Notes under the pieces: model-generated
What the model saw: only the letters and a program-made list of their open reading frames with translations
Told to the model about the DNA's origin: nothing
Database searches by the model: none
Source: an uncultured Spirochaetota bacterium
GTDB lineage: Bacteria; Spirochaetota; Spirochaetia; SZUA-6; Fen-1364
Direction of reading: 5' to 3'
DNA length: 45,208 bases
Assembly (NCBI GenBank): GCA_963820525.1
Contig: CAWGAA010000004.1
Coordinates: 1 to 45,208 of the forward strand
Translations under genes and position numbers: made by a program
Part shown: positions 13,327 through 45,208 of the stretch, piece by piece
Layout: each line of letters begins with the position of its first letter
Position numbering within the stretch: the first letter of the stretch is position 1

Positions 13327-15038
13327 CGAGCGCCTTCCATCGCGCGAGGCTCCGCTCCCCCCTTGCCCTCATCCTTCTTGCCCTCTCCGTCTCAATGGCG
13401 AGCTGCGCGGGACGCTTCGAAAGCTTCCCTTTTCTCACGGCGGATGGCGCCGGCATTCCGATGCGCGAAAGCCCCGGACAAGGCAGAGACCGGGAGGGGC
13501 TCCTCGAGGCCCGGGGAAGCGAAGCCGCCACCCCGCTCTACCGCCTCGCCCGTCCCGTCCTGGTCCAGACCGACGGCGAAGCATTCGCGCTGTCCTACTC
13601 AAGCTCCCTCGCGGACTGCGCTCTTTCCATTTATTCAACGGAGAAGGAGGAGCTGAAGCAGGTCCCTCTTCCTCCGACCGGCGAGTATTCGTACCGGCTG
13701 CTCGTGCCGCTTGAGCGGGGAAACACGATCCGGGCCTTCCGTATTTCCACACGGTCGAAGGAAGGATCGCTGCGGCTCGCCGGAGCGGGCACCGCGGCGC
13801 AGGCGCGCGGCTTTTCAATCCACGGAGACACCGTGACACTCGACGGGAGCGTCGCCCTTCGCGGAATCGCCTCACGCTCTCTCGACGCCCTGGTCTCAGA
13901 TGGGGCGCGCGAGGAGATGGCGGGAAAGCCGTGGCTCATCTCGATCCAACTTCGGCCCGGTGAGGCTCCCGGTGAAGCTGACGGCGGCGCGGACGAGCTC
14001 GTGGTCTCCTTCACGGGGCAGAGCCCGCAAAGCTCGCGGGCCTTCTCCGCGAGGCTGGATCCCGGCTGGCGCCGCATGGAGTTCTCGGCGGGTACCGTCG
14101 GATTCGCGCCGCGAGAGATCCACGTGGGACTGCGGGCGAGCGCCACGGGGAAATCCGGCCTGTCTCCCCTGGTCCAGGCCCTTGAGATTACCCGCGTTGA
14201 CGGGGCGCGCCCAATTCCCGCGGACCCCGGCTCTGTTCTCGATTACAGGCGCACGGCGTGGAGGAGGCCCGACTTCGAGCTTTTCTCCTGGGACCGGTTC
14301 CCTCACGTGCTCATTCTGGATACTGCGGATTATGCGGTTCAGGACAACATCTTCAAACGCCTGGCGTTTTTCGTCGAGAAGCCGGGGTATGCCGGGACCA
14401 TTCCCGATTCCCGCGAGCTTTCGGGGAAGCACGGGTGGAACGCCCACGACTACCGGGCCGATGACCTTGCGAGGTTTTTCTCCGCGGCCATGGCGAAGGG
14501 GGTTGCGCTCACGGCGGGAGAGCTCGACCTGCGGCGCATCCTCCTGGACAACGGAATCATCGCCTCAGGGGATTCGAGCTACTCTCCCGGGCGGGGGGCG
14601 GTCCTCTCGATATCACGCGAATCTCCCGCTGCCCTGCGAAGACTTCTCCTCACCCATGAATGCTTTCACGGAGTATTCTTCTCACTTGCCGAATATCGCG
14701 ACGCCTGCGGGAAGGCATGGAGCGCTCTGAGCGATGGCGAGAGGGAGCTCTGGAGCGCATTCTTCGGCCTGACGGGCTACGACACGGCGAACGGCTACCT
14801 CGAAGTGAACGAGTTCCAAAGCTATCTGTTCCAGCAGCCCCGAGAAGGCGTTGCCGCCTTCCAGGTCTCCGTGCTGGGGAAGCTGGACCGAAAGTATCCG
14901 GACCGGGCGCATCGATTCCGCCGCCTCATCGAGGGCAACCCCGATTCGTTCCTCCACTCATTCGACATGCTGGACCGGGCCCTCGCGGCCGCGGGAGGCC
15001 CGCGGGGCGGACTGGCGATATCCGTGGAGGCGGAATAG
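13323..15038 (+). CDS. Uncharacterised lipoprotein with HExxH zincin motif
   Basis: Lipobox-like [17 protein letters not shown] and WNAHDY blocks; THECFHG plus downstream NEFQSY; ATGA overlap with the upstream gene. Confidence 0.65.
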
Positions 15039-15070
15039 CGGAGTCCGCCGATCGCCGATATCCAATCTTC

Positions 15071-15099
15071 TTCACTTTCGGCCGAATTTTCAGTACACT
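15071..15099 (+). promoter_or_regulatory. Putative sigma70 promoter of nrdJ
   Basis: TTCACT(15071-76)-17 bp-TACACT(15094-99), 34 bp before the ATG at 15134. Confidence 0.4.
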
Positions 15100-15133
15100 G
15101 GGAAATTGCGACAATGTACGCGGGGGGGAACAC

Positions 15134-18100
15134 ATGGAGATCCAGCGGCGCTTCACTCGCGCGGGGCGGGGTCCCTTCGAGGAGATCTCGTTCGAAACGC
15201 GCACATCTGAGATACGAAATCCTGACGGCAAGGTGATCTTCAGGCAGGAGAACGTCGTCGTTCCCAAGCGGTGGTCCCAGATCGCGGCGGACGTGCTTGC
15301 CCAGAAGTACTTCAGGAAGCGCGGGCTCCAGCTTTCCGGCGGCAGGGGGGGCGCGGGCGCCAAAACAACGGCGGCCGGGGCGGGGCGAGGGGGGGCCCCA
15401 GGCAAGGGAGTCGAGCCCGGAGCCCCCGCAGCAGAAACGGGCGGGAGCGGCGCGCCCATCCTTCCCGGCCTCGACGGCAAGACCGGCGGAGAAAACGACG
15501 CGCGGCAGGTCTTCCACCGCCTGGCCTTCACCTGGATGGATTGGGGCAGGAAGTACGGCTATTTCTCCTCTCCCGCCGATGCCCAGGCTTTCTACGACGA
15601 GCTCTGCTGCATGCTGGCCCGGCAGATGGGCTCGCCCAACTCGCCGCAGTGGTTCAATACCGGATTGCACGCCGTCTACGGGCTCACCGGCCCCGCCCAG
15701 GGGCACTACTTCGTCAACCCGAAGACCGGCGAGGTTGAGAAATCGACAAGCGCCTACGAGCACCCACAGCCGCATGCCTGCCAGCCTTACCACGCACCCG
15801 TCTCAACCCCAATGGGGCCCGTTCCAATAGGAGCGATCGTGGAGCATGGGCTTGTAGGGCTTGAGGTTTATGACGGCTCCCATGATGGACGCGGGACTAC
15901 AAAAGTGGTCGCGGTGAAAGAGAACGGCGTGAAGCCGGTGTTCCGAGTCATTCTCAAGAATGGCTCTCCTCTGGAGGCAACGGCGGATCACCTCGTCTTC
16001 GCATCTTCACTACGACGACAGAAGGGCGGGTGGATACGACTCGATGAGCTGACACCTGGCATGCGGCTCAAGCTCTCAACAGCCACCGAGGTCAGGGATT
16101 TCAAGAAAGCGAGCCCACTATCAATAGATGAGGCCGCTCTGGCCGGATGGCTCCAAGGGGATGGGTTTGTCGGACAATATTCGAAAGGCAAGAACCGAAG
16201 CCTCACCATAGAGTTCATTACGATAAATGATCATGAGCACCAATACGTTCGGGAGCGTATCGAACGGGTTTTCCCAGGCGTCCACTATCACGTGCGAAGC
16301 GTCGAGTCCAAGGATCCGGCTTTGGAGATCGCTCGGATTCGTTTGTATGGAAAGGCGCTCCACCATTTTGTCGATAAATATCGCCTTCTCGATAAACCCG
16401 AAGAGAGGGCAATTCCTGAAGCAGTCGTCAGTGCAGGGAAAGATGCGCAGGCCGATGGGACGGTGAGGCTGAGAAGGCGATCGGCAGGTCGATTTCAAGA
16501 TCTTGTCGGATTTGTATCAGCAGATAAAAGACTCAAGCTGGACATCTCCTGCTCTGATCTCTTTCCCGGCAAAAAGGTTCCCCTGATGCGCGAGGAAGAA
16601 GTTCTCCGGATAGAGCCGGTCGGCAAGATGAAAGTGTATGACATTCAAACGGAGAGCGCGCAGTATCTTTCCAACAACATCCTCGTTCACAACTGTTTCA
16701 TCCTCTCCATCAATGACGACCTGGTGAACGACGGCGGGATCATGGACCTCATCACCCGCGAGGCGCGCCTGTTCAAATACGGCTCCGGCACGGGGACCAA
16801 CTATTCGAAGCTGCGCGCCTCCAACGAACCTCTTTCCGGCGGCGGGGTCTCTTCGGGGCTCCTCTCTTTCCTCAAAGTGAGCGACCGTTCAGCTTCCTCC
16901 ATCAAGAGCGGCGGCACAACGCGGAGGGCCGCCCGCATGGTGACCCTCGATGCAGACCATCCCGACGTGTTCAAGTACATCGACTGGAAGGTGCAGGAAG
17001 AGCGCAAGGTCGCGGCCATGGTGACGGGAAGCGCCGTGCTTCGAAAGCACACCCGGCGCATCCTGGAGGCGTTCAAAGGAGGGAACGGCTCCACCCCGGA
17101 CCTTGCGGCAAACAAGGATCTGGCGCACGCCATCAGGCATGCGCTGGCGGACGAGGTGCCGGCCTCCTACATCTATCAGGTTGTGCAGCTCGCCGGCCAG
17201 GGGGTATGGAACGTCGAGCCCGAGGAGTACACCACGGACTGGGACAGCGAGGCGTATAACACGGTGAGCGGCCAGTCCTCCAACAACAGCGTCCGCCTCA
17301 CGGACGCCTTCATGGAAGCCGTTCTCGATGACGGGGATTGGGAGCTGGTCAACCGCACCGACGCAAGCGCGAAAAGGAAGGTGAAGGCGCGGGAGATCTG
17401 GGAGCGGATAGCGCTCTCGGCGTGGCTGTGCGCGGACCCCGGCCTGCAGTTCCACACCACGATCAATGACTGGCACACCTGTCCCCAGGACGGGGAGATA
17501 CGCGCCTCCAATCCCTGCTCCGAGTACATGTTCCTCGACGACACGGCGTGCAACCTCGCTTCCTTGAACCTCCTCAGCTTCTACGACGCCGACAAGGGAG
17601 AGTTCCGCGTGGAGGATCTGCGCCATGCGATACGACTCTGGACCATAGTGCTTGAGATCAGCGTGCTCATGGCGCAGTTCCCCAGCAAGGAGATCGCGCG
17701 AAAGAGCTACGACTTCCGCACCCTCGGCCTGGGATTCGCCAACCTCGGCACGCTCCTCATGGTCATGGGAATTCCCTACGACAGCGCGGAAGGCAGGAGC
17801 ATCGCCGCGGCCCTCTCGGCGATCCTTACGGGAGAGGCATATGCCGCATCGGCGGAGATGGCGCAGGAACTGGGGCCCTTCACGCGCTTCTCTGCGAACA
17901 AGGACTCCATGCTCCGTGTCATCAGGAACCACCGCCGCGCCTCTTACAGCGCCGCAGCCGAGGAGTATGAGGGGCTGTCGGTGATTCCCCAGGCAATCGA
18001 CCCGCTGTTCTGCCCCCCCGACCTCATCGCCGCAGCGCGAAAGGCGTGGGACCGTGCGCTGGAGACGGGCGAGCGCCACGGTTTTCGAAACGCGCAGGTA

Positions 18101-19546
18101 AGCGCAATCGCCCCCACGGGGACCATCGGCCTGGTCATGGACTGCGACACCACCGGGGTGGAGCCCGATTTCAGCCTGGTGAAGTTCAAGAAGCTGGCGG
18201 GCGGCGGGTACTTCAAGATCATAAACACGTCGCTTCCTCCAGCCCTCCGAAGGCTCGGATACACCGAAAAACAGGTCGAAGAAATCGTGGCCTATTGCCT
18301 TGGCCGCGGCACGCTCGATGGCTCTCCCGGCGTGTCAGCCGAGGCCTTGCGAGAGAAAGGATTCTCCAACGAGGCGCTTTCGAAAATCGACAAGTCGCTG
18401 GAGAGCTCCTTCTCCATCTCGTTCTGCTTCACCCCCCACGTGCTGGGCAGGGAATTCCTGGAAGGGGCCCTGGGAATCTCCGAAGCCGCTGCATCACAGC
18501 CCGGCTTCAACCTGCTCTCCCACCTCGGCTTTTCCAACGCGGAGATCGAGCAGGCCAATCTCTATGCCTGCGGCACCATGACCATCGAGGGCGCTCCGCA
18601 TCTGAAAGCGGAGCACTACGCCGTCTTCGACACCGCCTCCCCCAACGGAAAGATCGGCAAGCGCTCCATACCCTGGCAGGCTCACATCGAGATGATGGCC
18701 GCCGTGCAGCCCTTCATCTCCGGGGCCATCTCCAAGACCATCAACATGCCCTCCACGGTCTCCCGGGACGACATCAAGGGAGCATACCTCCTGTCGTGGA
18801 GGAAGATGCTCAAGGCCATCGCGCTGTACCGCGACGGCTCGAAGCTGAGTCAGCCACTCTCCTCGCTCATGCCCGGCTCCGACGCGGCGGCGGCCGCGGT
18901 GCTTTCCGTGCTGGAGCAGGCCGGCGCCGCGGACCTCGGGACCGAGGAGCCGGGAGCGGGCCACGCGCGAAAGAGAAACCCTCTTCCGGCCAAGCGCTTC
19001 GGCTATACGCAGAAGGCCAAGATCGGCGGGCACAGCATCTTCCTGCGCACCGGCCAATACGCGGACAGCAGCCTCGGGGAAATTTTCCTGGACATGCACA
19101 AGGAGGGGGCCGCTTTCAGAAGTCTCCTCAACAGCTTCGCCATTGCGGTGTCTCTCGGCCTGCAGTACGGCGTGCCGCTCGAGGAATACGTCGATGCCTT
19201 CACCTTCACCCGCTTCGAGCCCAACGGGATCGTGAGCGGCCACGACAACATCAAGATGACGACTTCCGTGCTGGACTTCATCTTCCGCGACCTGGCCCTC
19301 GCCTACCTCGGACGCACGGACCTGGTGCAGGTCAAGCCCGACGACCTCATCTCGACGAGCACCATGGCGAACGGCGGGAAACCGGGCGGAAACGGCGAGG
19401 CCGACGTGGGCGACAGCGAGATCCGCGTGGCCAAAATGAAGGGCTACGAGGGGGATCCCTGCCCCGTGTGCGGAAACTTCACGATGGTGAGAAGCGGGAC
19501 CTGCATGCGCTGCGACACCTGCGGGTCAACGACGGGCTGCTCGTAG
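15134..19546 (+). CDS. nrdJ: Class II (adenosylcobalamin-dependent) ribonucleotide reductase, intein-containing
   Basis: Start ATG 15134; [65 protein letters not shown] motifs; C-terminal TSCPD-like domain and CPVC...[11 protein letters not shown] tail. Confidence 0.96.
15779..16693 (+). mobile_element. Intein (305 aa) with degenerate LAGLIDADG homing endonuclease
   Basis: Starts CQPYHAPV; block B ATADHLVF; block [10 protein letters not shown]; block F VYDIQTE; ends ILVHN followed by +1 Cys. Removing it restores PQPHACFILS. Codon usage visibly less GC3-rich than the exteins. Confidence 0.95.
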
Positions 19547-30731: not shown

Positions 30732-31040
30732 ATGGAACATACCAGAGACCACATCATATTTTTCATGGCACAGAAGATGTACTTCCTGGAGAAGATGGGC
30801 CAGAAAGAGGTTTTCAACAGGCTGGTCGAGCATTTCGAGCAGATCAACCTCGACCGGCTTCTGGAATACCTGACCCGCTACTACTCCCTGGACATCGAGC
30901 GGGAGCTCGACGATTTCTACCTGAGCGAGGGCGAGCTGGTGTTCATCTCTCGCAAGAAGTCCTTCCGGTACAAACACGTCTACAGGGACAGCCACCTCCG
31001 CCTGGTTGGAATCGAGACTCCCGGCGAAGAGGCGTGCTAG
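30732..31040 (+). CDS. Hypothetical protein
   Basis: 102 aa with host-like codon usage; its TAG stop lies in the MITE target site. Confidence 0.6.
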   Translation: MEHTRDHIIFFMAQKMYFLEKMGQKEVFNRLVEHFEQINLDRLLEYLTRYYSLDIERELDDFYLSEGELVFISRKKSFRYKHVYRDSHLRLVGIETPGEEAC

Positions 31041-31168
31041 GAGCCTGTCGGACTTTGGCCGTTTCCTGCATAAAAATTCAGCAGACAGGCCGCCGGTGTA
31101 TGTTTATGCAGGTTTCCTCGGGTTGTTGTGCATGAACATACACAAAAGCAGGCAAGTCCGACAGGCTC
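31041..31168. mobile_element. 128-bp MITE with 15-bp terminal inverted repeats and CTAG flanks
   Basis: GAGCCTGTCGGACTT (31041-55) and AAGTCCGACAGGCTC (31154-68) are perfect inverted repeats; CTAG at 31037-40 and 31169-72; no transposase inside. Confidence 0.8.
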
Positions 31169-31212
31169 CTAGCCCGGCCCCGCAATGGGGCGGGCCCCCC
31201 CTAGGCACCCGC

Positions 31213-36509: not shown

Positions 36510-36925
36510 TGCGTCTGGAAACCACAGCGACCGTCATTCCTCGCGCATCGGCGATAATCGCCCACATCCCCGAAGGCGCTTTCTATCTTAACGTCACATC
36601 CAGCAGGTGGCAAGAGTCCCGGGCAGCGTTTCGTTGCGTTCGCTGGTCGGCGGCTGGCTCAGCGGAGCGACAAATGTGATGAAGTCGACTCCGCAATTTC
36701 GCCCAGGAATTCAGTTTTCACCATGCTCTACCATCTCGGCAGCACCTGTCCACTTCGGGCAAAGAACGGCCTTACCGAAGGCTCAGGCCAAGCTCGATGG
36801 CCAAATGATAGTAACTACTATAGAAGCGGCCAGCGGGGTGCAGCGGCGAGAGGAGGCAGGGGGCCCCGTACATCCGCACATGGTGCATGGATAGACGAAC
36901 CCCAGGCGGAACGAAAAGCGAGGAA

Positions 36926-37530
36926 TCAGTTCAGCGACGCCGGATCCAAGCCGGGTGGCGGCTTTGCGATCTTGATGAGATGCCGCAAGATTTTCAGTAT
37001 TTGCGTGGGCTCTGTGATGACGGCGAGCACCCTCATGGGTTCGCCACACCGAGAGCAGGTCAGGGGATCCGCCTCGTAGACCTTCTTGATCAGCCGAGCC
37101 CAGGCGGCACAGCTCTGCTTGGCCGAGACGGGGCAGTCGAACTGCTGCTGGTCGGGCAGACCGATCCGGAGAGCGGGTTGGGGTGGATGGGCGCGCTTCC
37201 AGCCCTCTGGGGCGAGGCGGACGAGGTGAGGGGTGCGGGACCACCCTCTCGGCGTGCACGCGCGCCTGCCGGGCAAGGAGTGCCGCGAGTTCGAGATGAG
37301 TACAAGCCGTAGCTGCGGCCTCCCGCAGGGCTGCGCCCTGCTGCCGGCCAGGGGATGAGTCGATTGCGTGATTCGGGCAAGTGCTGAAGGACCTCGGCGA
37401 GAAACTCGATGGCCGGGAAAATCCTGGAATCGGTGCAACGCCGTCAAATCAGTGTCCCAGGCGGGAGAAAACGCCCTCCGGCAGCTCGATGGCTGGTGGC
37501 CGGTGTCATTCCCGGAAACGCTGCGGGCCA
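36926..37530 (-). mobile_element. Degraded IS91-family (Y2 HUH) transposase remnant
   Basis: C-terminal WARLIKKVYEADPLTCSRCGEPMRVLAVITE..ILKILRHL; RSYGLYSSRTRG and LARITQ fragments upstream, split across different frames. Confidence 0.8.
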
Positions 37531-39265: not shown

Positions 39266-40027
39266 TCACTGGGCGGTGTAGCCGCCGTCGATGCTCAGGA
39301 TAGCGCCCGTTGCGTAGCCCGCTTCCGCGCTGGCCAGATAGAGGATTGCGGAGGCGATCTCCTCGGGTGTCCCCAGCCTGTTCGCCGGTCGCGTCTGCTC
39401 GAGGCTGCGACGCATAGACTGCGGATCAGTCGATTTCGCGAGCGCTGACTGCACAAGCGGAGTATCCGTCGTCCCCGGGCAGACGCAGTTCACGCGGATC
39501 CCGCGTGAAGCGAAGTCGACCGCGCAGCTTTTCGTCAATTCTATCATGCCGCTTTTCGACACGTTATACGCAACCTGGCCCGGAATCCCCACGAGACCCG
39601 CTTCAGAAGCCACGTTGACGATCACGCCGCCCGAGCCCCTCGTCATCGCCGGCACCGCGTATTTCGTGCAAAGGAAGGCGCCGGTGAGATTCACGGCAAG
39701 GATTTTATCCCATACCTCACGAGGAGTGTTCAGGGCATCCGCCTTGTAATAGATTCCCGCATTGTTCACCAAGATGTCCAGGCGTCCCCATCGGGCCATG
39801 ACGGCATCGAAAAGCGACCTGACCGCCGGCTCGTCGGACACGTCGATTGGGAGGGCCTGCGCCTCACCTCCGGCGCGGCGGATTTCCTCGGCGACCCGGT
39901 TTCCCGACTCCTTGTCCATGTCGGCAATCGCGGCTCTGGCTCCTCCCTTTGCCAAAGCGAGAACGGCAGCCCGTCCGATTCCCGACGAACCTCCCGTGAC
40001 AACCGCGACTCTTCCCGTAAACTGCAT
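39266..40027 (-). CDS. Classical SDR family oxidoreductase
   Basis: Start ATG 40027; [21 protein letters not shown] and NCVCPG motifs. Confidence 0.92.
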
Positions 40028-40028
40028 T

Positions 40029-41006
40029 TTATGTCTCCTCCGGCACAACCTGCTTCCTCGCCCGCTCCGCCATCTGGCGCAGCTCATCGAAGAGCTGTCC
40101 CTGCAGGGGGACGGCGCGATGGAAGACCTCTGCAATGACGGCGAGCCACCCGAAGATGAAATACAGCCAGCCATCCTCCACGTGGAGTCCTTTTGCCTGT
40201 TCTTGAGCCCGGGCCTGGCGCAGGAAATCGAGCTCTCCACGATAGTTAAAATCCCAGGCAAACCCGCCTCCAGGGAAGACCGCGGCATCGGTGATCGGGG
40301 AGCCCGGCGCGTCTTTGCCCAGGCCGGTGGCGTTTACGACAAGGGATCCCGCGGAAAGCCTGGCCATGATCGCATCATTATCCGCCGGGGAAGGGGTCAA
40401 AACGTACTCCACCGGGACCGTGAGCGATTGCTTGGAGTGTATCGCCTTTATCTCTTGCAACCGGCCGGGACTGCGGTTTGATACGAAGATGCGTGAGGGA
40501 CGGTTCTTCCCGTGTCTCTCGCTGGCCAGGTGGAAGCTCAGCGCGATACTCGAGCCTCCCGCTCCGAGGATGAACGCATCGGCGTGCGTGCTTTCCCAGT
40601 GTCCGTTTGGGAGAAAAGCCGCGAGGGCGCGTCCGCTGCTGATGGGGTCCTTTGCCGCACCCAGCAGGCGACCGTCCCGCTTCGCGATCGAGCTCACCTC
40701 GCCCATCAAGGAAGCGAAGTCGTCCAGCTCGTCGAACATGCCCCTGCAGGCGTGGAGGAGATCGATCTTGTGGGTCGTGACGAGCGCTCCCAAGGAGAGA
40801 GGATCGTCGCGGATGAAGCTGACGACCTGCCGGTAACGCTCGGGCTTGTCGTGGAGCGCCAGGTCGATTCCCTTGATCTCGCAATCTCCGAGATCGAGGG
40901 CGTGCGCCCACGAGGGGAAAACATGTATGATCATTGACTTGGTCGTGCTCACCCCAATAAAGTATATCGTTGGGCGGCTTGCTGGCAGCAGCTTCAGATC
41001 ACTCAC
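40029..41006 (-). CDS. Shikimate dehydrogenase-like NAD(P)-dependent oxidoreductase
   Basis: GALVTTHK, ILGAGGS, VNATGLGKD.PGSP, WDFNYRG and EDGWLYF motifs; lacks the canonical AroE HSLSP and NTD motifs. Confidence 0.75.
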   Translation of the reverse strand: MSDLKLLPASRPTIYFIGVSTTKSMIIHVFPSWAHALDLGDCEIKGIDLALHDKPERYRQVVSFIRDDPLSLGALVTTHKIDLLHACRGMFDELDDFASLMGEVSSIAKRDGRLLGAAKDPISSGRALAAFLPNGHWESTHADAFILGAGGSSIALSFHLASERHGKNRPSRIFVSNRSPGRLQEIKAIHSKQSLTVPVEYVLTPSPADNDAIMARLSAGSLVVNATGLGKDAPGSPITDAAVFPGGGFAWDFNYRGELDFLRQARAQEQAKGLHVEDGWLYFIFGWLAVIAEVFHRAVPLQGQLFDELRQMAERARKQVVPEET

Positions 41007-41020
41007 ATTCTACCTTCACA

Positions 41021-41049
41021 TCATAATGTTTTATGAATTATTATCATAA
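41021..41049. promoter_or_regulatory. Putative repressor operator of three TCATAA/TTATGA half-sites
   Basis: TCATAA(41021-26)-4-TTATGA(41031-36)-7-TCATAA(41044-49), overlapping the leftward -10. Confidence 0.55.
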
Positions 41050-41071
41050 CATAGCATTTTGAACCTGTCAA
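41043..41071 (-). promoter_or_regulatory. Sigma70 promoter for the leftward oxidoreductase operon
   Basis: TTGACA(41071-66)-17-TATGAT(41048-43). Confidence 0.75.
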
Positions 41072-41257
41072 GATACAGTTTCGCTATCTTTCAATATAAT
41101 TCAACAGAAAAAAATACAATACGCTAAGCTTCCCCAACCATATTAGAACTACCCTGCCGGACCATACAGTTGCTCCAAGAATAGCGATCGCGTTGCATGG
41201 GATATAGCGCGTTGTATTTCTCGATTCTCCGGCACGATGGGGAACGTACCCAAAAAG

Positions 41258-41286
41258 TTGACAGATTCTAGGTCGTGCTCTATAAT
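41258..41286 (+). promoter_or_regulatory. Perfect-consensus sigma70 promoter
   Basis: TTGACA(41258-63)-17-TATAAT(41281-86), with an A-tract immediately upstream. Confidence 0.85.
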
Positions 41287-41576
41287 CGATAACATATGAA
41301 AATCAATATGGTCATTCGCTAAACAACTTAGGTAAACAACAATAAAAAAGAATCCGGAGGTGTAAAAAGGATTTTATCATGTCGTGGTTAATCTGTGAGG
41401 GGGTGTGGGCCAGGCTCGCCACGGCAGCGAGAGGCGCCGAGCAAGAGCAGATCGGGTTGGAGACGAGCGTCATGCCTTTTTCTGGTCCGCGCACCCGCCG
41501 GCACTGAAGCCGCCGTCACCACATTCCGCTGCAGGAGGCAGGGCCCATCTGAAGCATAGACAGAGGAGAAATTGCC

Positions 41577-42434
41577 ATGATCAAATACGGTTCCCACACC
41601 TTCCTTTGGATCGATGAATGGACGCTGGAGAAAGGTCAATCGGCCATCACGGGTGCCCGCGATGCCGGCTTTGACTTCATCGAGATCTCCCTCATGAGGC
41701 CGGACGAGTTTGACCCGGCTGCAAACAGGAAGATGCTTGCCGACGCCGGGCTGGAAGCCACCGCTTCGCTCGTGTTGCCGGATTGGGCCCACCTGCCGGA
41801 ACAGCCGCAGAAAGCGAAGCACTACCTGGTCGCGGCGCTCGACAAGGTGGAGGCCCTCGGTGCTTCGTACCTCTGCGGTTGTATCGCTTTCGCTTTGGGC
41901 AAGTTCACCGGCGCACCGCCGAGTCGGGCCGAGCGCCAGGTGGTCATTGACACGTTGGGCGAGGTGGCACGGGAAGCCAAGAAACGGGGGATTAACCTCG
42001 GAATGGAAGTGGTAAACCGCTACGAATCCCACCTGTACAACACGCTGATCGATGCGCGGGAGACAATCCTGGCCATCGGGGCTGACAATCTCAAACTCCA
42101 TGTTGACACTTACCACATGAACATCGAGGAAAACGGATTCTATAGGCCCTTGGTCGCCTGCGCCGACGTGCTGGGCTATGTGCATATGAGCGAAAACCAC
42201 CGGGGTCTGCTCGGTACCGGAACCGTGAACTGGGATGAGATCTTCAAGGGACTGGTCGACGCGCGCTACAGTGGACCGCTGGTGGTCAAGTCTTTTGCGG
42301 CAGTCAATCCTGGCCTTGCGGCGGCGATCAAGCTGTGGCGACCGCCAAACCAGCCTCCTCACGTCCTGGCGACGGAGGGCTTGAAATTCCTGCGCGAAAA
42401 GGCGGAGAGATTCGGGCTGGGGAAGGAACACTAG
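41577..42434 (+). CDS. D-psicose/D-tagatose 3-epimerase family protein, with a catalytic Glu apparently replaced by Lys
   Basis: MEVVNRYE, HVDTYHMNIEE and YVHMSENHRG motifs; PLVVKSF where the family has E. Confidence 0.85.
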   Translation: MIKYGSHTFLWIDEWTLEKGQSAITGARDAGFDFIEISLMRPDEFDPAANRKMLADAGLEATASLVLPDWAHLPEQPQKAKHYLVAALDKVEALGASYLCGCIAFALGKFTGAPPSRAERQVVIDTLGEVAREAKKRGINLGMEVVNRYESHLYNTLIDARETILAIGADNLKLHVDTYHMNIEENGFYRPLVACADVLGYVHMSENHRGLLGTGTVNWDEIFKGLVDARYSGPLVVKSFAAVNPGLAAAIKLWRPPNQPPHVLATEGLKFLREKAERFGLGKEH

Positions 42435-42452
42435 GGCAAGGCGGATTCGGAC

Positions 42453-43415
42453 CTATCGGCCAATGACTCTCTGTCTTCCAGTGTTTATCAGGATCGCAAT
42501 GAATACAAGCAGTCCCTGCACAAACTCGGTGAAATAGCCGCTGACTCCTCCTGCCCTCACAACCATGACTATCAGTTGAACCAAATAAGCTCCGGCAATG
42601 ACATTGATGAAATTGCCTCTTCCCCCCGTTAAGCTGACCCCCGCTATCACCGGAGCCGCGATAGCGGGCATAAGCCACTCCACCGCAAAACTAGCGGATA
42701 CAAATCCCATTCTCGATGATGAGACATACCCCGCCAACGCGGCGAATAATCCAGAAATCATGAATGAAATGACCCGAATTCTATTGACGGGAATCCCCAT
42801 CGCGCTGCACGCTTCCCTGTTCCCCCCGACCATGTACAGTCTTCTCCCGGTCACCGTACGCCTGGCGAACAGTATCGCAATGATGACGACTACGAGAAAG
42901 AAGAAGACAAGCAACTGAATTGGTCCTATGAATACCCTCCCCAACAACATCCACATATCCGGGAGCCCGGCCTTTGCCACGCCTCGTGTGACAATCAGGA
43001 CAATTCCTTCCAACATCCACCACATCGCTACCGTTTGAACCAACGACGGGATTTTAAGTCTCGTAATCATCACTCCATTACAAAACCCTATTCCGCATCC
43101 CATTAAAAACGTCAATAAGATGGCGGCCGGCACCGGAAAACCTAATTCCCATGAGATTATTCCCGCCATGGGCGAAAACGCGGCCACGGCAACCATGGAA
43201 AGATCAATTTCTCCGACCAGCATGACAAACGTCATTCCGATGGAAAGAAGGCACACTGTTGTTCCTTGGACCAGCACATTTAATAAGATTGCAGACCTGA
43301 AGATTGTGGGAACGAAAATGCCCATCACAAGGTAAATCCCTACGAACAAGAACCATGTATAGTACTCCACTAAACCAGTCCGAACGGCCCCGAGCAAGTA
43401 TCTCGCCGATTTCAA
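42453..43415 (-). CDS. Monosaccharide ABC transporter permease (RbsC-like)
   Basis: GMTFVMLVGEIDLS, GRRLYMVGGN and VIAGVSLTGGRG motifs; TTG start after AGGAGG. Confidence 0.92.
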   Translation of the reverse strand: MKSARYLLGAVRTGLVEYYTWFLFVGIYLVMGIFVPTIFRSAILLNVLVQGTTVCLLSIGMTFVMLVGEIDLSMVAVAAFSPMAGIISWELGFPVPAAILLTFLMGCGIGFCNGVMITRLKIPSLVQTVAMWWMLEGIVLIVTRGVAKAGLPDMWMLLGRVFIGPIQLLVFFFLVVVIIAILFARRTVTGRRLYMVGGNREACSAMGIPVNRIRVISFMISGLFAALAGYVSSSRMGFVSASFAVEWLMPAIAAPVIAGVSLTGGRGNFINVIAGAYLVQLIVMVVRAGGVSGYFTEFVQGLLVFIAILINTGRQRVIGR

Positions 43416-43432
43416 AAGCTTTACCTCCTATC

Positions 43433-44197
43433 TTATGGGAGCATGTGCCTTACTATCTCATCGATGCCGATTTCATCAGTGCGGCCGAAAAACATCTTTT
43501 CACCTCCTCTTAGCACCATTATGTAATGGCTTAATTCCTTGACCAGGTCCAAATCGTGAGAAACTATCACCATGGTAATGTCGCTCTTTTTGTTCACTTC
43601 TCTGAGGAAATCAACGATCTCCTTTCTTCCCTCCAGAGACAGCAGAGTAAAGGATTCGTCCAGGAGGAGGATTTCCGGGTTCGCTTCGATGGCCCTGGTG
43701 ACTGCGATAATTTGTCTTTGCTCCCCGGAGAGTTCTCCTGCTTCCCGCTCTACGTCGAATTCAGGGCCGTATTTCGCGATTGCCTCTGCTGTTAGCTGCT
43801 TCATTTTTCCTATGTCAAGGAACACGAGGGGGCCAATTCTTTTGGTCAGTTCCCTGCCCATGAAGAAATTTTCCCATACCATCGCACTGTCTACTAATTC
43901 CAAAAACTGGTATGCGATCGCTATTCCTATTTTCATCGCGTCAGCTGGACTCTTGAACCTTGTTTTCCTTCCCTCAAGGTAAATTTCTCCGCCGGAGGGC
44001 TGAAGATCACCGCTCAAGATTTTTAGGAGAGTAGACTTCCCGGCACCATTATCGCCAACCAAGCCTAGAATCTTGCCTCTCTCAAGATCGAATGACACAT
44101 TGCTGAGGGCCCTGACCGTGCCGTAATTCTTGGAGATATTCCTCACTTCCATCATAATTCCAGATCCACTCATCCCCGGCAAATCCACTGATCGCAT
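43433..44197 (-). CDS. Single-domain sugar ABC ATPase, copy B
   Basis: Walker A GDNGAGKS; signature LSGEQ; Walker B/D-loop LLLDESFT; H-loop VSHD. Confidence 0.9.
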   Translation of the reverse strand: MRSVDLPGMSGSGIMMEVRNISKNYGTVRALSNVSFDLERGKILGLVGDNGAGKSTLLKILSGDLQPSGGEIYLEGRKTRFKSPADAMKIGIAIAYQFLELVDSAMVWENFFMGRELTKRIGPLVFLDIGKMKQLTAEAIAKYGPEFDVEREAGELSGEQRQIIAVTRAIEANPEILLLDESFTLLSLEGRKEIVDFLREVNKKSDITMVIVSHDLDLVKELSHYIMVLRGGEKMFFGRTDEIGIDEIVRHMLP

Positions 44198-44946
44198 CAG
44201 TTGGCCAAACCCATTGCGAGCTTAAAGATCTTCACCCTGTCGGCGGCTTCGGCATCGAAACGGCCTACAACCTCGCCCCTCCTGAGGACTATCACCTCAT
44301 CGACGAAATCACTCACCTGTTCATACCACTGACTGGTGATGATAATTGAGGTGTCTTTCTCTTCTTTGGCCTTTCTGAGAAGATCAAAAATATCTTTTAT
44401 GACCCTCTTCGATAAACCGTGGGTGGGCTCGTCCAGCAAAAGGATTTGGGGATTCGCATCGATGGCCCTGGTGACTGCGATAATTTGTCTCTGTCCTCCG
44501 GAGAGTTCTCCAATTTCACGCTCTATATCGAATGTATGGCCGTATTTCGCGATCGATTCTGCTGTCAAACGCTTCATCTTCTCCACGTCAAGGAATACAA
44601 GCGGGCCTATTCTTTTGGTCAGTTCCCTGCCCATGAAGAAATTCTCCCACACCTTTGCGATATCCACTAGTTCTAGAAACTGGTACACGATCGCTATACC
44701 TTTTTTCATCGCGTCAGCGGGGCTCTTGAACCGTGCTTCCTTCCCCTTGATGCAAATCTCTCCGTTGGACGGCCGAAGGCCGCCGCTCAATATAGTGAGG
44801 AGAGTAGTTCTCCCGGCGCCATTATCTCCAACCAATCCCAGAATCTTGCCTTTCTCAAGATCAAATGACACGTTACTGAGAGCTCTGACCGTGCCAAAGC
44901 TCTTCGAAATGCTCTTCACCTCCAATAGCGGACCAGCTCCTTGCAT
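44197..44946 (-). CDS. Single-domain sugar ABC ATPase, copy A
   Basis: Walker A GDNGAGRT; signature LSGGQ; LLLDEPT; H-loop replaced by TSQW. Confidence 0.9.
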   Translation of the reverse strand: MQGAGPLLEVKSISKSFGTVRALSNVSFDLEKGKILGLVGDNGAGRTTLLTILSGGLRPSNGEICIKGKEARFKSPADAMKKGIAIVYQFLELVDIAKVWENFFMGRELTKRIGPLVFLDVEKMKRLTAESIAKYGHTFDIEREIGELSGGQRQIIAVTRAIDANPQILLLDEPTHGLSKRVIKDIFDLLRKAKEEKDTSIIITSQWYEQVSDFVDEVIVLRRGEVVGRFDAEAADRVKIFKLAMGLAN

Positions 44947-45208
44947 TGTAAACCCTCGATCCCAATCATCCTCTCAGGAATTGAAGCCCGCCTCTCCTTC
45001 TCTCATCCCGATCAGGTGCAAGCGGGCGCCAGATGCAAGTGTTCGCTCAGCTTCCTGGCACTTCCCGGTTTCATTTCAGAGAGGTTCTAAGTGCCCTCCC
45101 TCTGTGAGTGAATGCGAGCCACAGGATTTACCGGGCTTTCGCCGTACCGGTTTACAAGGTGCACCACATACCTACACTCATCCTTCGGTGAAATGACCTT
45201 GTAACGTA

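Follow-up and report, generated by a model that had tools for sequence, protein, structure and literature searches.

The window analysed here is the entire 45-kb contig (C4; 45,208 nucleotides [nt]) of a four-contig genome of an uncultured Spirochaetota bacterium. Its last 2.8 kb are filled by three genes of an ATP-binding cassette (ABC) transporter, all on the minus strand. Two of them are adjacent half-size ABC ATPase genes, here termed A (44197..44946; 249 amino acids [aa]) and B (43433..44197; 254-aa open reading frame [ORF]). The third is a 320-aa permease (42453..43415), the only permease gene of the locus. A and B scored 105.8 and 97.1 bits, respectively, against ABC_tran (PF00005; Pfam gathering cut-off 25), and the permease scored 135.3 bits against BPD_transp_2. 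BLASTP comparison of A with B revealed 156 identical residues out of 240 (65%; E 8e-109). An earlier note on this DNA, referred to below as the original prediction, had quoted three long identical blocks shared by A and B; all three were found in both translations.

The top NCBIfam matches of A and B were the N-terminal halves of AraG, YtfR, XylG and RbsA, and the two proteins aligned to profile positions ~1-240 of ~500 in these models. The best named NCBIfam matches of the permease were LsrC, AraH and RbsC. Scores at the equivalog level were not reached (ATPase best 178 bits vs a cut-off of 689; permease 143.9 vs 388), and these matches do not name a substrate. After clustering at 50%, the closest sequences beyond the A/B family were fused ATPases of ~500 aa with 28-41% identity, and no fused A-B form with more than 41% identity was found among the longer proteins. 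Three features of CUT2 importers were present: an RbsA/AraG/XylG-like ATPase, a BPD_transp_2 permease and, in the operon of a second copy of the locus (described below), a Peripla_BP_4 protein. A fourth feature, two tandem nucleotide-binding domains (NBDs) in one polypeptide, was not; here the NBDs are encoded by two genes (249 and 246-254 aa). From these matches we infer that A and B supply the two NBDs of a single RbsABC-type (CUT2) importer, which would take up a sugar or polyol with the help of a binding protein.

The motifs of A and B were checked codon by codon on the window sequence (all on the minus strand), and every motif quoted in the original prediction was verified. The Walker A motif of A reads GDNGAGRTT (44803..44829), in which Arg46 (AGA, 44809-44811) takes the place of Lys. 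At the H-loop position of A, Gln206 (CAG, 44329..44331) replaces His. A has a canonical LSGGQ signature (44491..44505) and retains Walker B Asp-Glu, which is followed by Pro-Thr (DEPT). B has a Walker A Lys (AAG, 44036..44038) within GAGKST and an H-loop His (CAC, 43556..43558). Its signature is LSGEQ (43718..43732), with Gly changed to Glu at motif position 4. Its Walker B Asp-Glu is followed by Ser-Phe, not Pro-Thr (DESFT, 43646..43660), and the similarity between A and B ends at this point.

In the head-to-tail dimer of ABC proteins, each ATP site pairs the Walker A, Walker B, Q-loop and H-loop of one NBD with the signature of its partner. By this general geometry, the non-consensus residues of A and B fall into the same composite site (site I), and the opposite site (site II) has consensus residues. 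Site II would consist of the Walker A Lys, Walker B Asp-Glu, Q-loop and H-loop His of B together with LSGGQ of A, and hydrolysis would take place here; the claim of the original prediction that one site is canonical was borne out. Site I would consist of A Walker A (Arg in the window) and the Gln at the H-loop position of A together with LSGEQ of B. This site most probably binds ATP with slow or no hydrolysis, and may hold or regulate the dimer. The original prediction had placed all lesions in this site. That was correct for Walker A and the H-loop of A and for the signature of B, but the Ser-Phe of B could not be cleanly assigned. Its role as a purely trans-acting element is doubtful because it adjoins the catalytic residue of B itself (Walker B Glu).

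The possible dimers would differ in their sites. In an A-A dimer neither site would have the His, in a B-B dimer both sites would contain a Glu-bearing signature, and a complete site would be formed in the A-B dimer alone. The transporter would be composed of one binding protein, two copies of the single permease, which presumably forms a homodimer, one A and one B. Our reading, to which we assign a probability of about 0.7, is that A and B form a heterodimeric motor on a permease homodimer, in which site II is hydrolytic and site I is non-canonical and probably poor in hydrolysis. Heterodimer formation, which the original prediction proposed to be obligate, the identity of the hydrolysing site and the stoichiometry are predicted here from sequence motifs and dimer geometry.

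To collect homologues, word-indexed database searches were performed with A and with B (best 120 of each), and 235 half-size sequences were aligned. These were classed as A-type or B-type by identity of the C-terminal tail, with the motif columns left out. The H-loop position was Gln in 109, Pro in 5 and His in none of the 114 A-type sequences, and was His in 121/121 B-type sequences. A separate and cruder classing by the H-loop residue itself gave 113 A-type and 121 B-type sequences, to which the following counts refer. The A-type signature was LSGGQ in 108 sequences, LSGEQ in 4 and ISGGQ in 1. A-type Walker A had Arg in 70 and Lys in 38 and was truncated in 5; the A-type Q-loop residue was Gln (97), Glu (12) or Asp (4). 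The window A and all A-type proteins listed kept Walker B Asp-Glu, followed by Pro in 113/113 (DEPT in 86; another residue after Pro in 27). In B-type sequences, Glu occupied signature position 4 in 117 (LSGEQ 88, ISGEQ 12, LSGEE 6, LTGEQ 5, LPGEQ 3, LTGEH 3), and the remaining 4 had LSGGQ. B-type Walker A had Lys in 117, Arg in 3 and Asn in 1, the Q-loop had Gln in 120 and Glu in 1, and DESF was found at Walker B in 119.

Because it recurs in more than 200 database homologues, the motif pattern is far beyond chance. Two of the changes, the missing His of A and the altered signature of B, are shared across the family; the third, Lys-to-Arg in A, is lineage-specific. The complementary motif changes described in the original prediction therefore hold for the family in the first two respects, but not in the third.

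The gene order A-B-permease was present in metagenome-assembled genomes (MAGs) labelled Spirochaetota, Thermodesulfobacteriota, Syntrophaceae, Desulfobacterales, Actinomycetota and Bacillota/Clostridia. A of one Spirochaetota-labelled MAG was 94% identical to window A. Haloarcula and Haladaptatus had the order permease-A-B, with 44-48% identity. Among same-family or same-order genomes, 0/40 had a match to the pair at E <= 1e-60. Among genomes sampled across the phylum, 0/400 had a match at E <= 1e-70 in a shallow search that scored 6 candidates per genome. The A/B pair is rare or patchy among relatives within the phylum.

We then considered A and B as partners. Thirty-five contigs carried exactly one A and one B, the window included and metagenome contigs added; three of these (L017, L018 and L109) were near-identical to one another. 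In these pairs the A signature was LSGGQ in 35/35, and the H-loop position of A was Gln in 31, Pro in 4 and never His. A Walker A had Arg in 20 and Lys in 12 and was unreadable in 3. B had the H-loop His in 34/34 readable rows and Walker A Lys in 32/32. The B signature was non-canonical in 34 of the 35 pairs, and 27 of those 34 had Glu at position 4 (LSGEQ 15, LSGEE 6, LSGGE 4, LTGEE 4, LTGGQ 3, ISGEQ 1, LSGEH 1; canonical LSGGQ 1). The same pattern is evidently conserved across phyla, as the original prediction had suggested should be looked for. Loci at which a single A or B was seen were cut by a contig end or had the partner gene on the other strand.

The asymmetry of A and B was compared with that of fused CUT2 ATPases by splitting 137 CUT2-type representatives into N and C halves. 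The N half had Walker A Lys, Q-loop Gln and Walker B Asp-Glu in 137/137 and the H-loop His in 136, with a highly variable, non-canonical signature. In the C half, Walker A had Arg in 112 and Lys in 14, the Q-loop had Glu in 121, and Walker B Asp-Glu was kept in 116. The H-loop position of the C half was Ser in 125 and His in none, and its signature was LSGGNQQK in nearly all. The parallel with fused RbsA-type ATPases drawn in the original prediction was thus confirmed, the same layout being found in 137/137. PMC11466899 describes this layout in B. subtilis RbsA and NupO as one degenerate site, and asks what degeneracy means in the context of fusion.

The fused CUT2 ATPases (RbsA, AraG, XylG, MglA, YtfR, AlsA and LsrA; ~500 aa) share with the A/B locus the same permease and binding-protein families and the same division of motifs, B resembling the N half and A the C half. 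They differ from it in several respects. A and B are two genes in reversed order, with the subunit that has Arg and lacks His coming first. Over residues 1-167, both A and B are N-half-like. A and B are 65% identical, whereas the fused halves have a median identity of 26%, and the similarity of A and B is maintained by gene conversion (see below).

The same data bear on the possibility that both ATP sites are active, such that Arg, Gln and Glu are tolerated variants and the two sites of a heterodimer differ in kinetics alone. Such activity is consistent with the retained Walker B Asp-Glu of A, with the Q-loop Gln in 97/113 and the Walker A Lys in 38/113 A-type proteins, and with the occurrence of LSGGE as the normal signature of a single-gene relative (L021). 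However, the deviations are not scattered; all of them lie in one composite site, and the other site is strictly kept (A LSGGQ in 35/35 and B His in 34/34 pairs). His was found in 0/114 A-type proteins, and Arg in Walker A, Glu in the Q-loop and the lack of His also typify the C halves of the 137 fused ATPases. ABC sites are strongly impaired by loss of the switch His, and also by an acidic residue at the fourth signature position, such as CFTR G551D introduces. TAP1 has Gln at the switch-His position. We consider two active sites unlikely.

Identity between A and B varied along the proteins. At residues 176-245, A and B were 16-35% identical in every genome compared, whereas A-type sequences were 40-91% and B-type sequences 33-93% identical among themselves, comparisons of bacteria with haloarchaea included. 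At residues 1-175, A and B of the same genome were 53-98% identical, and no bacteria-haloarchaea orthology signal was observed. Partners on the same contig showed 53-98% aa and 58-99% nt identity over codons 18-173, and 18-35% aa identity over codons 176-240. Across the 235 sequences, residues 1-175 contained just two class-discriminating columns, signature G151E and boundary P174S, and residues 176-249 contained 20. Between the window copies of A and B, dS was 0.93 for the N-terminal part and reached saturation (2.39) for the C-terminal part. The homogenised segment of A, codons ~18-173, lies at 44429..44895 on the minus strand; DNA alignment with B 43656-44122 gave 82.5% identity over 470 nt.

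Phylogenetic trees of the two regions were discordant. In the C-terminal tree, all A rows formed one clade (95/99) and all B rows another (100/97), and B grouped with the fused N halves and the single-gene relative (97/96). In the N-terminal tree, haloarchaeal A and B were sisters (97/97), bacterial A and B formed one group (88/96), and the nearest outgroup of A plus B was the single-gene L021/L022 (97/93). The approximately unbiased (AU) test rejected a single clade of all A rows for the N-terminal region (p 0.0008) and a haloarchaeal A+B clade for the C-terminal region (p 0.0014); A and B as sisters in the C-terminal region were not rejected (p 0.089). The clades tested were named after the identity matrix had been seen, though they were defined by gene order and by the other region. 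Profile scores were used to ask whether A descends from the C half, and B from the N half, of a fused ATPase. For residues 1-167, N half vs C half of fused ATPases, they were 172 vs 97 bits for A and 174 vs 86 bits for B. By the same scores, the C-terminal region of B was N-half-like in 121/121, and that of A was equivocal (51.2 vs 51.3 bits; N half better in 58/112).

The parsimonious history is one of two ancient C-terminal modules and repeated N-terminal gene conversion. In it, A and B each have a distinct C-terminal module of ancient origin, comprising D-loop, H-loop and tail; the N-terminal two thirds have been overwritten repeatedly between A and B, and selection would keep or restore the signature difference. 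The long identical blocks shared by A and B thus result from gene conversion of codons ~18-173. The original prediction had viewed A and B as a duplicated pair that degenerated in a complementary manner; a simple recent duplication of this kind was not upheld, since their C-terminal thirds are only 18-35% identical and belong to two ancient clades.

Individual contigs illustrate the extent of conversion. In L115, A and B were 100% identical over nt 1-452 and 466-527. The differences there were confined to a 13-nt patch that changes the signature residues (Q152E, H154Q and L155T), and similarity was lost directly after Walker B. In L105, codons 41-160 were 100% identical between A and B. The two genes were on opposite strands in 9/35 pairs, all from metagenome contigs (L105, L107, L112, L114, L124, L125, L130, L133 and L139); in L105 and L107 they were convergent neighbours ~50 nt apart. 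N-terminal DNA identity in opposite-strand pairs reached 94-98%, indicating that conversion also occurs between inverted copies.

The opposite-strand pairs also bear on whether A and B serve as alternative motors, as A-A or B-B homodimers under different conditions or with one of them serving another transporter. Such pairs show that A and B are not always part of one transcript, and the genome is rich in other ABC systems (134 matches), which leaves room for this idea. On the other hand, neither gene was found without the other on any contig of sufficient length, and 35 contigs had one of each. Either homodimer would carry two incomplete sites, and the repeated conversion between A and B shows long-term physical linkage. 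The chance that they are alternative motors appears slight.

Selection on the two genes was estimated by the Nei-Gojobori method as the ratio of nonsynonymous to synonymous substitution rates (dN/dS), using the window genes and their orthologs in L012, L013 and L015 (pairs with unsaturated dS). dN/dS was 0.06-0.14 for A and 0.08-0.10 for B, apart from a single short C-terminal comparison of B (0.26). Reading frames were intact in all pairs examined, save for contig-end truncations and one shortened B (L012). A and B are both under purifying selection, and neither is decaying. The original prediction would have been undermined by private substitutions with neutral dN/dS; the values obtained were ~0.1 for both genes.

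These values were also set against the possibility that one of the two genes is a decaying duplicate turning into a pseudogene, so that the motif pattern has no function. Several catalytic motifs of A are altered, and its Walker A and Q-loop residues vary between lineages, as might be expected of decay. The low dN/dS of both genes and their intact frames contradict it, however, as do the C-terminal module of A, whose conserved clade extends to haloarchaea, and the conserved motifs in same-contig pairs. This explanation was rejected as extremely improbable.

The distribution of the motifs among lineages suggests an order in which site I may have degenerated: His would have been lost in all A, Gly at signature position 4 would then have changed to Glu in B of the main bacterial clade, and Lys would finally have changed to Arg in a sub-clade of A. 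Conversion reached up to 100% DNA identity over ~175 codons; within such tracts a signature island survives, and the His-less module of A was never overwritten. That the signature still differs between A and B within newly converted stretches speaks for selection on the asymmetry. We consider the chances about even that the degenerate ABC site is kept by selection and not by drift, and that its stepwise degeneration is convergent with that of the fused RbsA-type ATPases.

Several observations weigh against the heterodimer with a hydrolytic site II and a poorly hydrolytic site I, or against the account of its history. Since A keeps Walker B Asp-Glu and 38/113 A-type proteins keep Walker A Lys, site I may still hydrolyse ATP, at least in some lineages. 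Loss of the catalytic Walker B Glu, called a hallmark of degenerate sites in PMC7544095, was not seen in A. Mild B signatures occur in deep lineages (haloarchaeal LTGGQ, and LSGGE, which is also the signature of the single-gene L021); the severity of the site I defect therefore varies between lineages. Exceptions were found among the database homologues (B-type Walker A Arg in 3 and Asn in 1, B-type LSGGQ in 4, A-type LSGEQ in 4), and the pair in L105 has LSGGQ in both genes. The best 60 matches of a PDB sequence search were generic ABC domains alone, with no CUT2 ATPase. The 100%-identical tracts come from metagenome contigs and may be assembly artefacts in individual contigs.

Other known systems share parts of this arrangement. 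Single-gene half-size CUT2 ATPases, presumed homodimers, are represented by L021 and L022 (Labrenzia/Roseibium), which we take to be FrcA-like. Their NBDs are half-size like A and B, and the next gene in L021 encodes a permease 27% identical to the window permease. They differ from the A/B locus in having one ATPase gene, not two; in L021, Lys, Gln, Asp-Glu and His are all canonical in one protein, so that its two sites are identical. LivG/LivF and UrtD/UrtE, of branched-chain amino acid and urea importers, are likewise separate half-size NBD genes for BPD_transp_2 permeases, but they were weaker NCBIfam matches of A and B, far below the CUT2 models. In heterodimeric exporters (TM287/288, BmrCD, TAP1/2 and MsRv1273c/72c), two NBD polypeptides are reported to contribute deviant residues to one site, as in A/B, those in the cis motifs of one NBD joining those in the signature of the other. 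These exporters have fused transmembrane domains, and their hallmark is loss of the Walker B catalytic Glu. The A/B locus, in contrast, codes for an importer whose NBDs and single permease come from separate genes. Both of its NBDs keep this Glu, and the deviations lie at Walker A Lys (in some lineages), at the H-loop His and at Gly4 of the signature.

A separate fused tandem ATPase was also observed in metagenomic proteins P0121 and P0380 (578-580 aa), ~40% identical to A and B. The first half has Gln at the H-loop position (VSQDL) and the second half has His (ISHNL); both halves have Walker A Lys and LSGGQ. One-sided loss of His thus occurs again within the NBD group of A and B, in the same order as A-B.

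The final 2,759 bases of the window (42450..45208), which run to the end of the contig, are a duplicated segment; the second copy lies on contig C1 (3188876-3191644; 97.9% identity). The operon of the C1 copy (L011) consists of a binding-protein gene (414 aa, Peripla_BP_4), A, B and the permease, and a TIM-barrel gene comes next. The 414-aa binding protein is also encoded upstream of A in L015. The window contig stops 262 nt upstream of A, and the binding-protein gene of the window copy lies outside the visible sequence. The two genomic copies differ at 60 alignment columns: A has 1 substitution (the proteins are 100% identical), B has 7 substitutions plus a 10-nt indel with 2 flanking substitutions near the 5′ end, the permease has 39 substitutions, and the spacer has 1. 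Divergence between the copies thus climbs along the segment from A through B to the permease. Recombination between the two copies may explain this rise; alternatively, some reads of the other copy may have gone into the assembled contig end.

The stop codon of A and the start codon of the B ORF overlap by one base (TGATG, 44195-44199), and translational coupling of the two genes had been proposed in the original prediction. The overlap was found only in the window copy. The C1 copy has 10 extra bases at window position 44177, and its B starts 33 nt past the stop of A; the start Met corresponds to residue 9 of the window ORF. Many of the B entries in databases have 240 or 246 aa. The real start of B is likely Met9 at 44173 (246 aa) or Met-Met at 44152-44157 (240 aa). 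A-B spacers in other genomes range from a short overlap or a few bases up to ~300 nt. Coupling is therefore not conserved: the overlap is confined to the window copy, B entries are shorter, spacers vary, and 9/35 pairs are on opposite strands.

Beside the transporter, window positions 39266-42434 encode a short-chain dehydrogenase/reductase (SDR), a 325-aa protein that matches no Pfam family and a xylose-isomerase-like TIM-barrel protein. The neighbours of the C1 copy (L011 5995-8081 and 12947-13804) encode a Zn-dehydrogenase, a Gfo/Idh/MocA oxidoreductase and another TIM-barrel protein. The neighbouring genes of both copies fit sugar or polyol catabolism and do not name the substrate. At the opposite end of the window, bases 1-461 match the end of contig C3 at 99.1%, so that both window ends repeat other contigs. 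An element of ~140 nt (31036-31182) is 98.6-100% identical to two C1 sites and one C3 site; it is not a tRNA, and may be a small repeat or the end of a mobile element. Positions 36920-37224 are ~81% identical to two places on C3 and may be part of a paralogous gene family. A very long ORF (1628 aa) is present on the plus strand at 14660-19546.

No paper was found that describes, in its title or abstract, a split CUT2 ATPase pair or gene conversion between ABC ATPases; most subscription journals were not covered. Degenerate sites are an established feature of exporters and have also been described for fused CUT2 ATPases. The purpose of one "broken" ATP site in many ABC transporters is a question that has been studied almost solely in exporters. 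Since the same asymmetry is found in a two-gene form, fusion is not required for it. An asymmetry defended by selection against homogenising recombination would be stronger evidence for function than conservation alone. A, B, one permease and one binding protein would make a compact system whose parts are genetically separable, so that either site could be mutated without touching the other. For annotation, the locus is a warning that two adjacent ATPase genes with 65% identity are not redundant copies. If the reading of stepwise degeneration is true, site I would have ended with the residues that fused ATPases acquired separately (Arg in Walker A, Glu in the Q-loop, loss of His), and split and fused ATPases of sugar importers would have converged on a single favoured form of non-hydrolytic ATP site.

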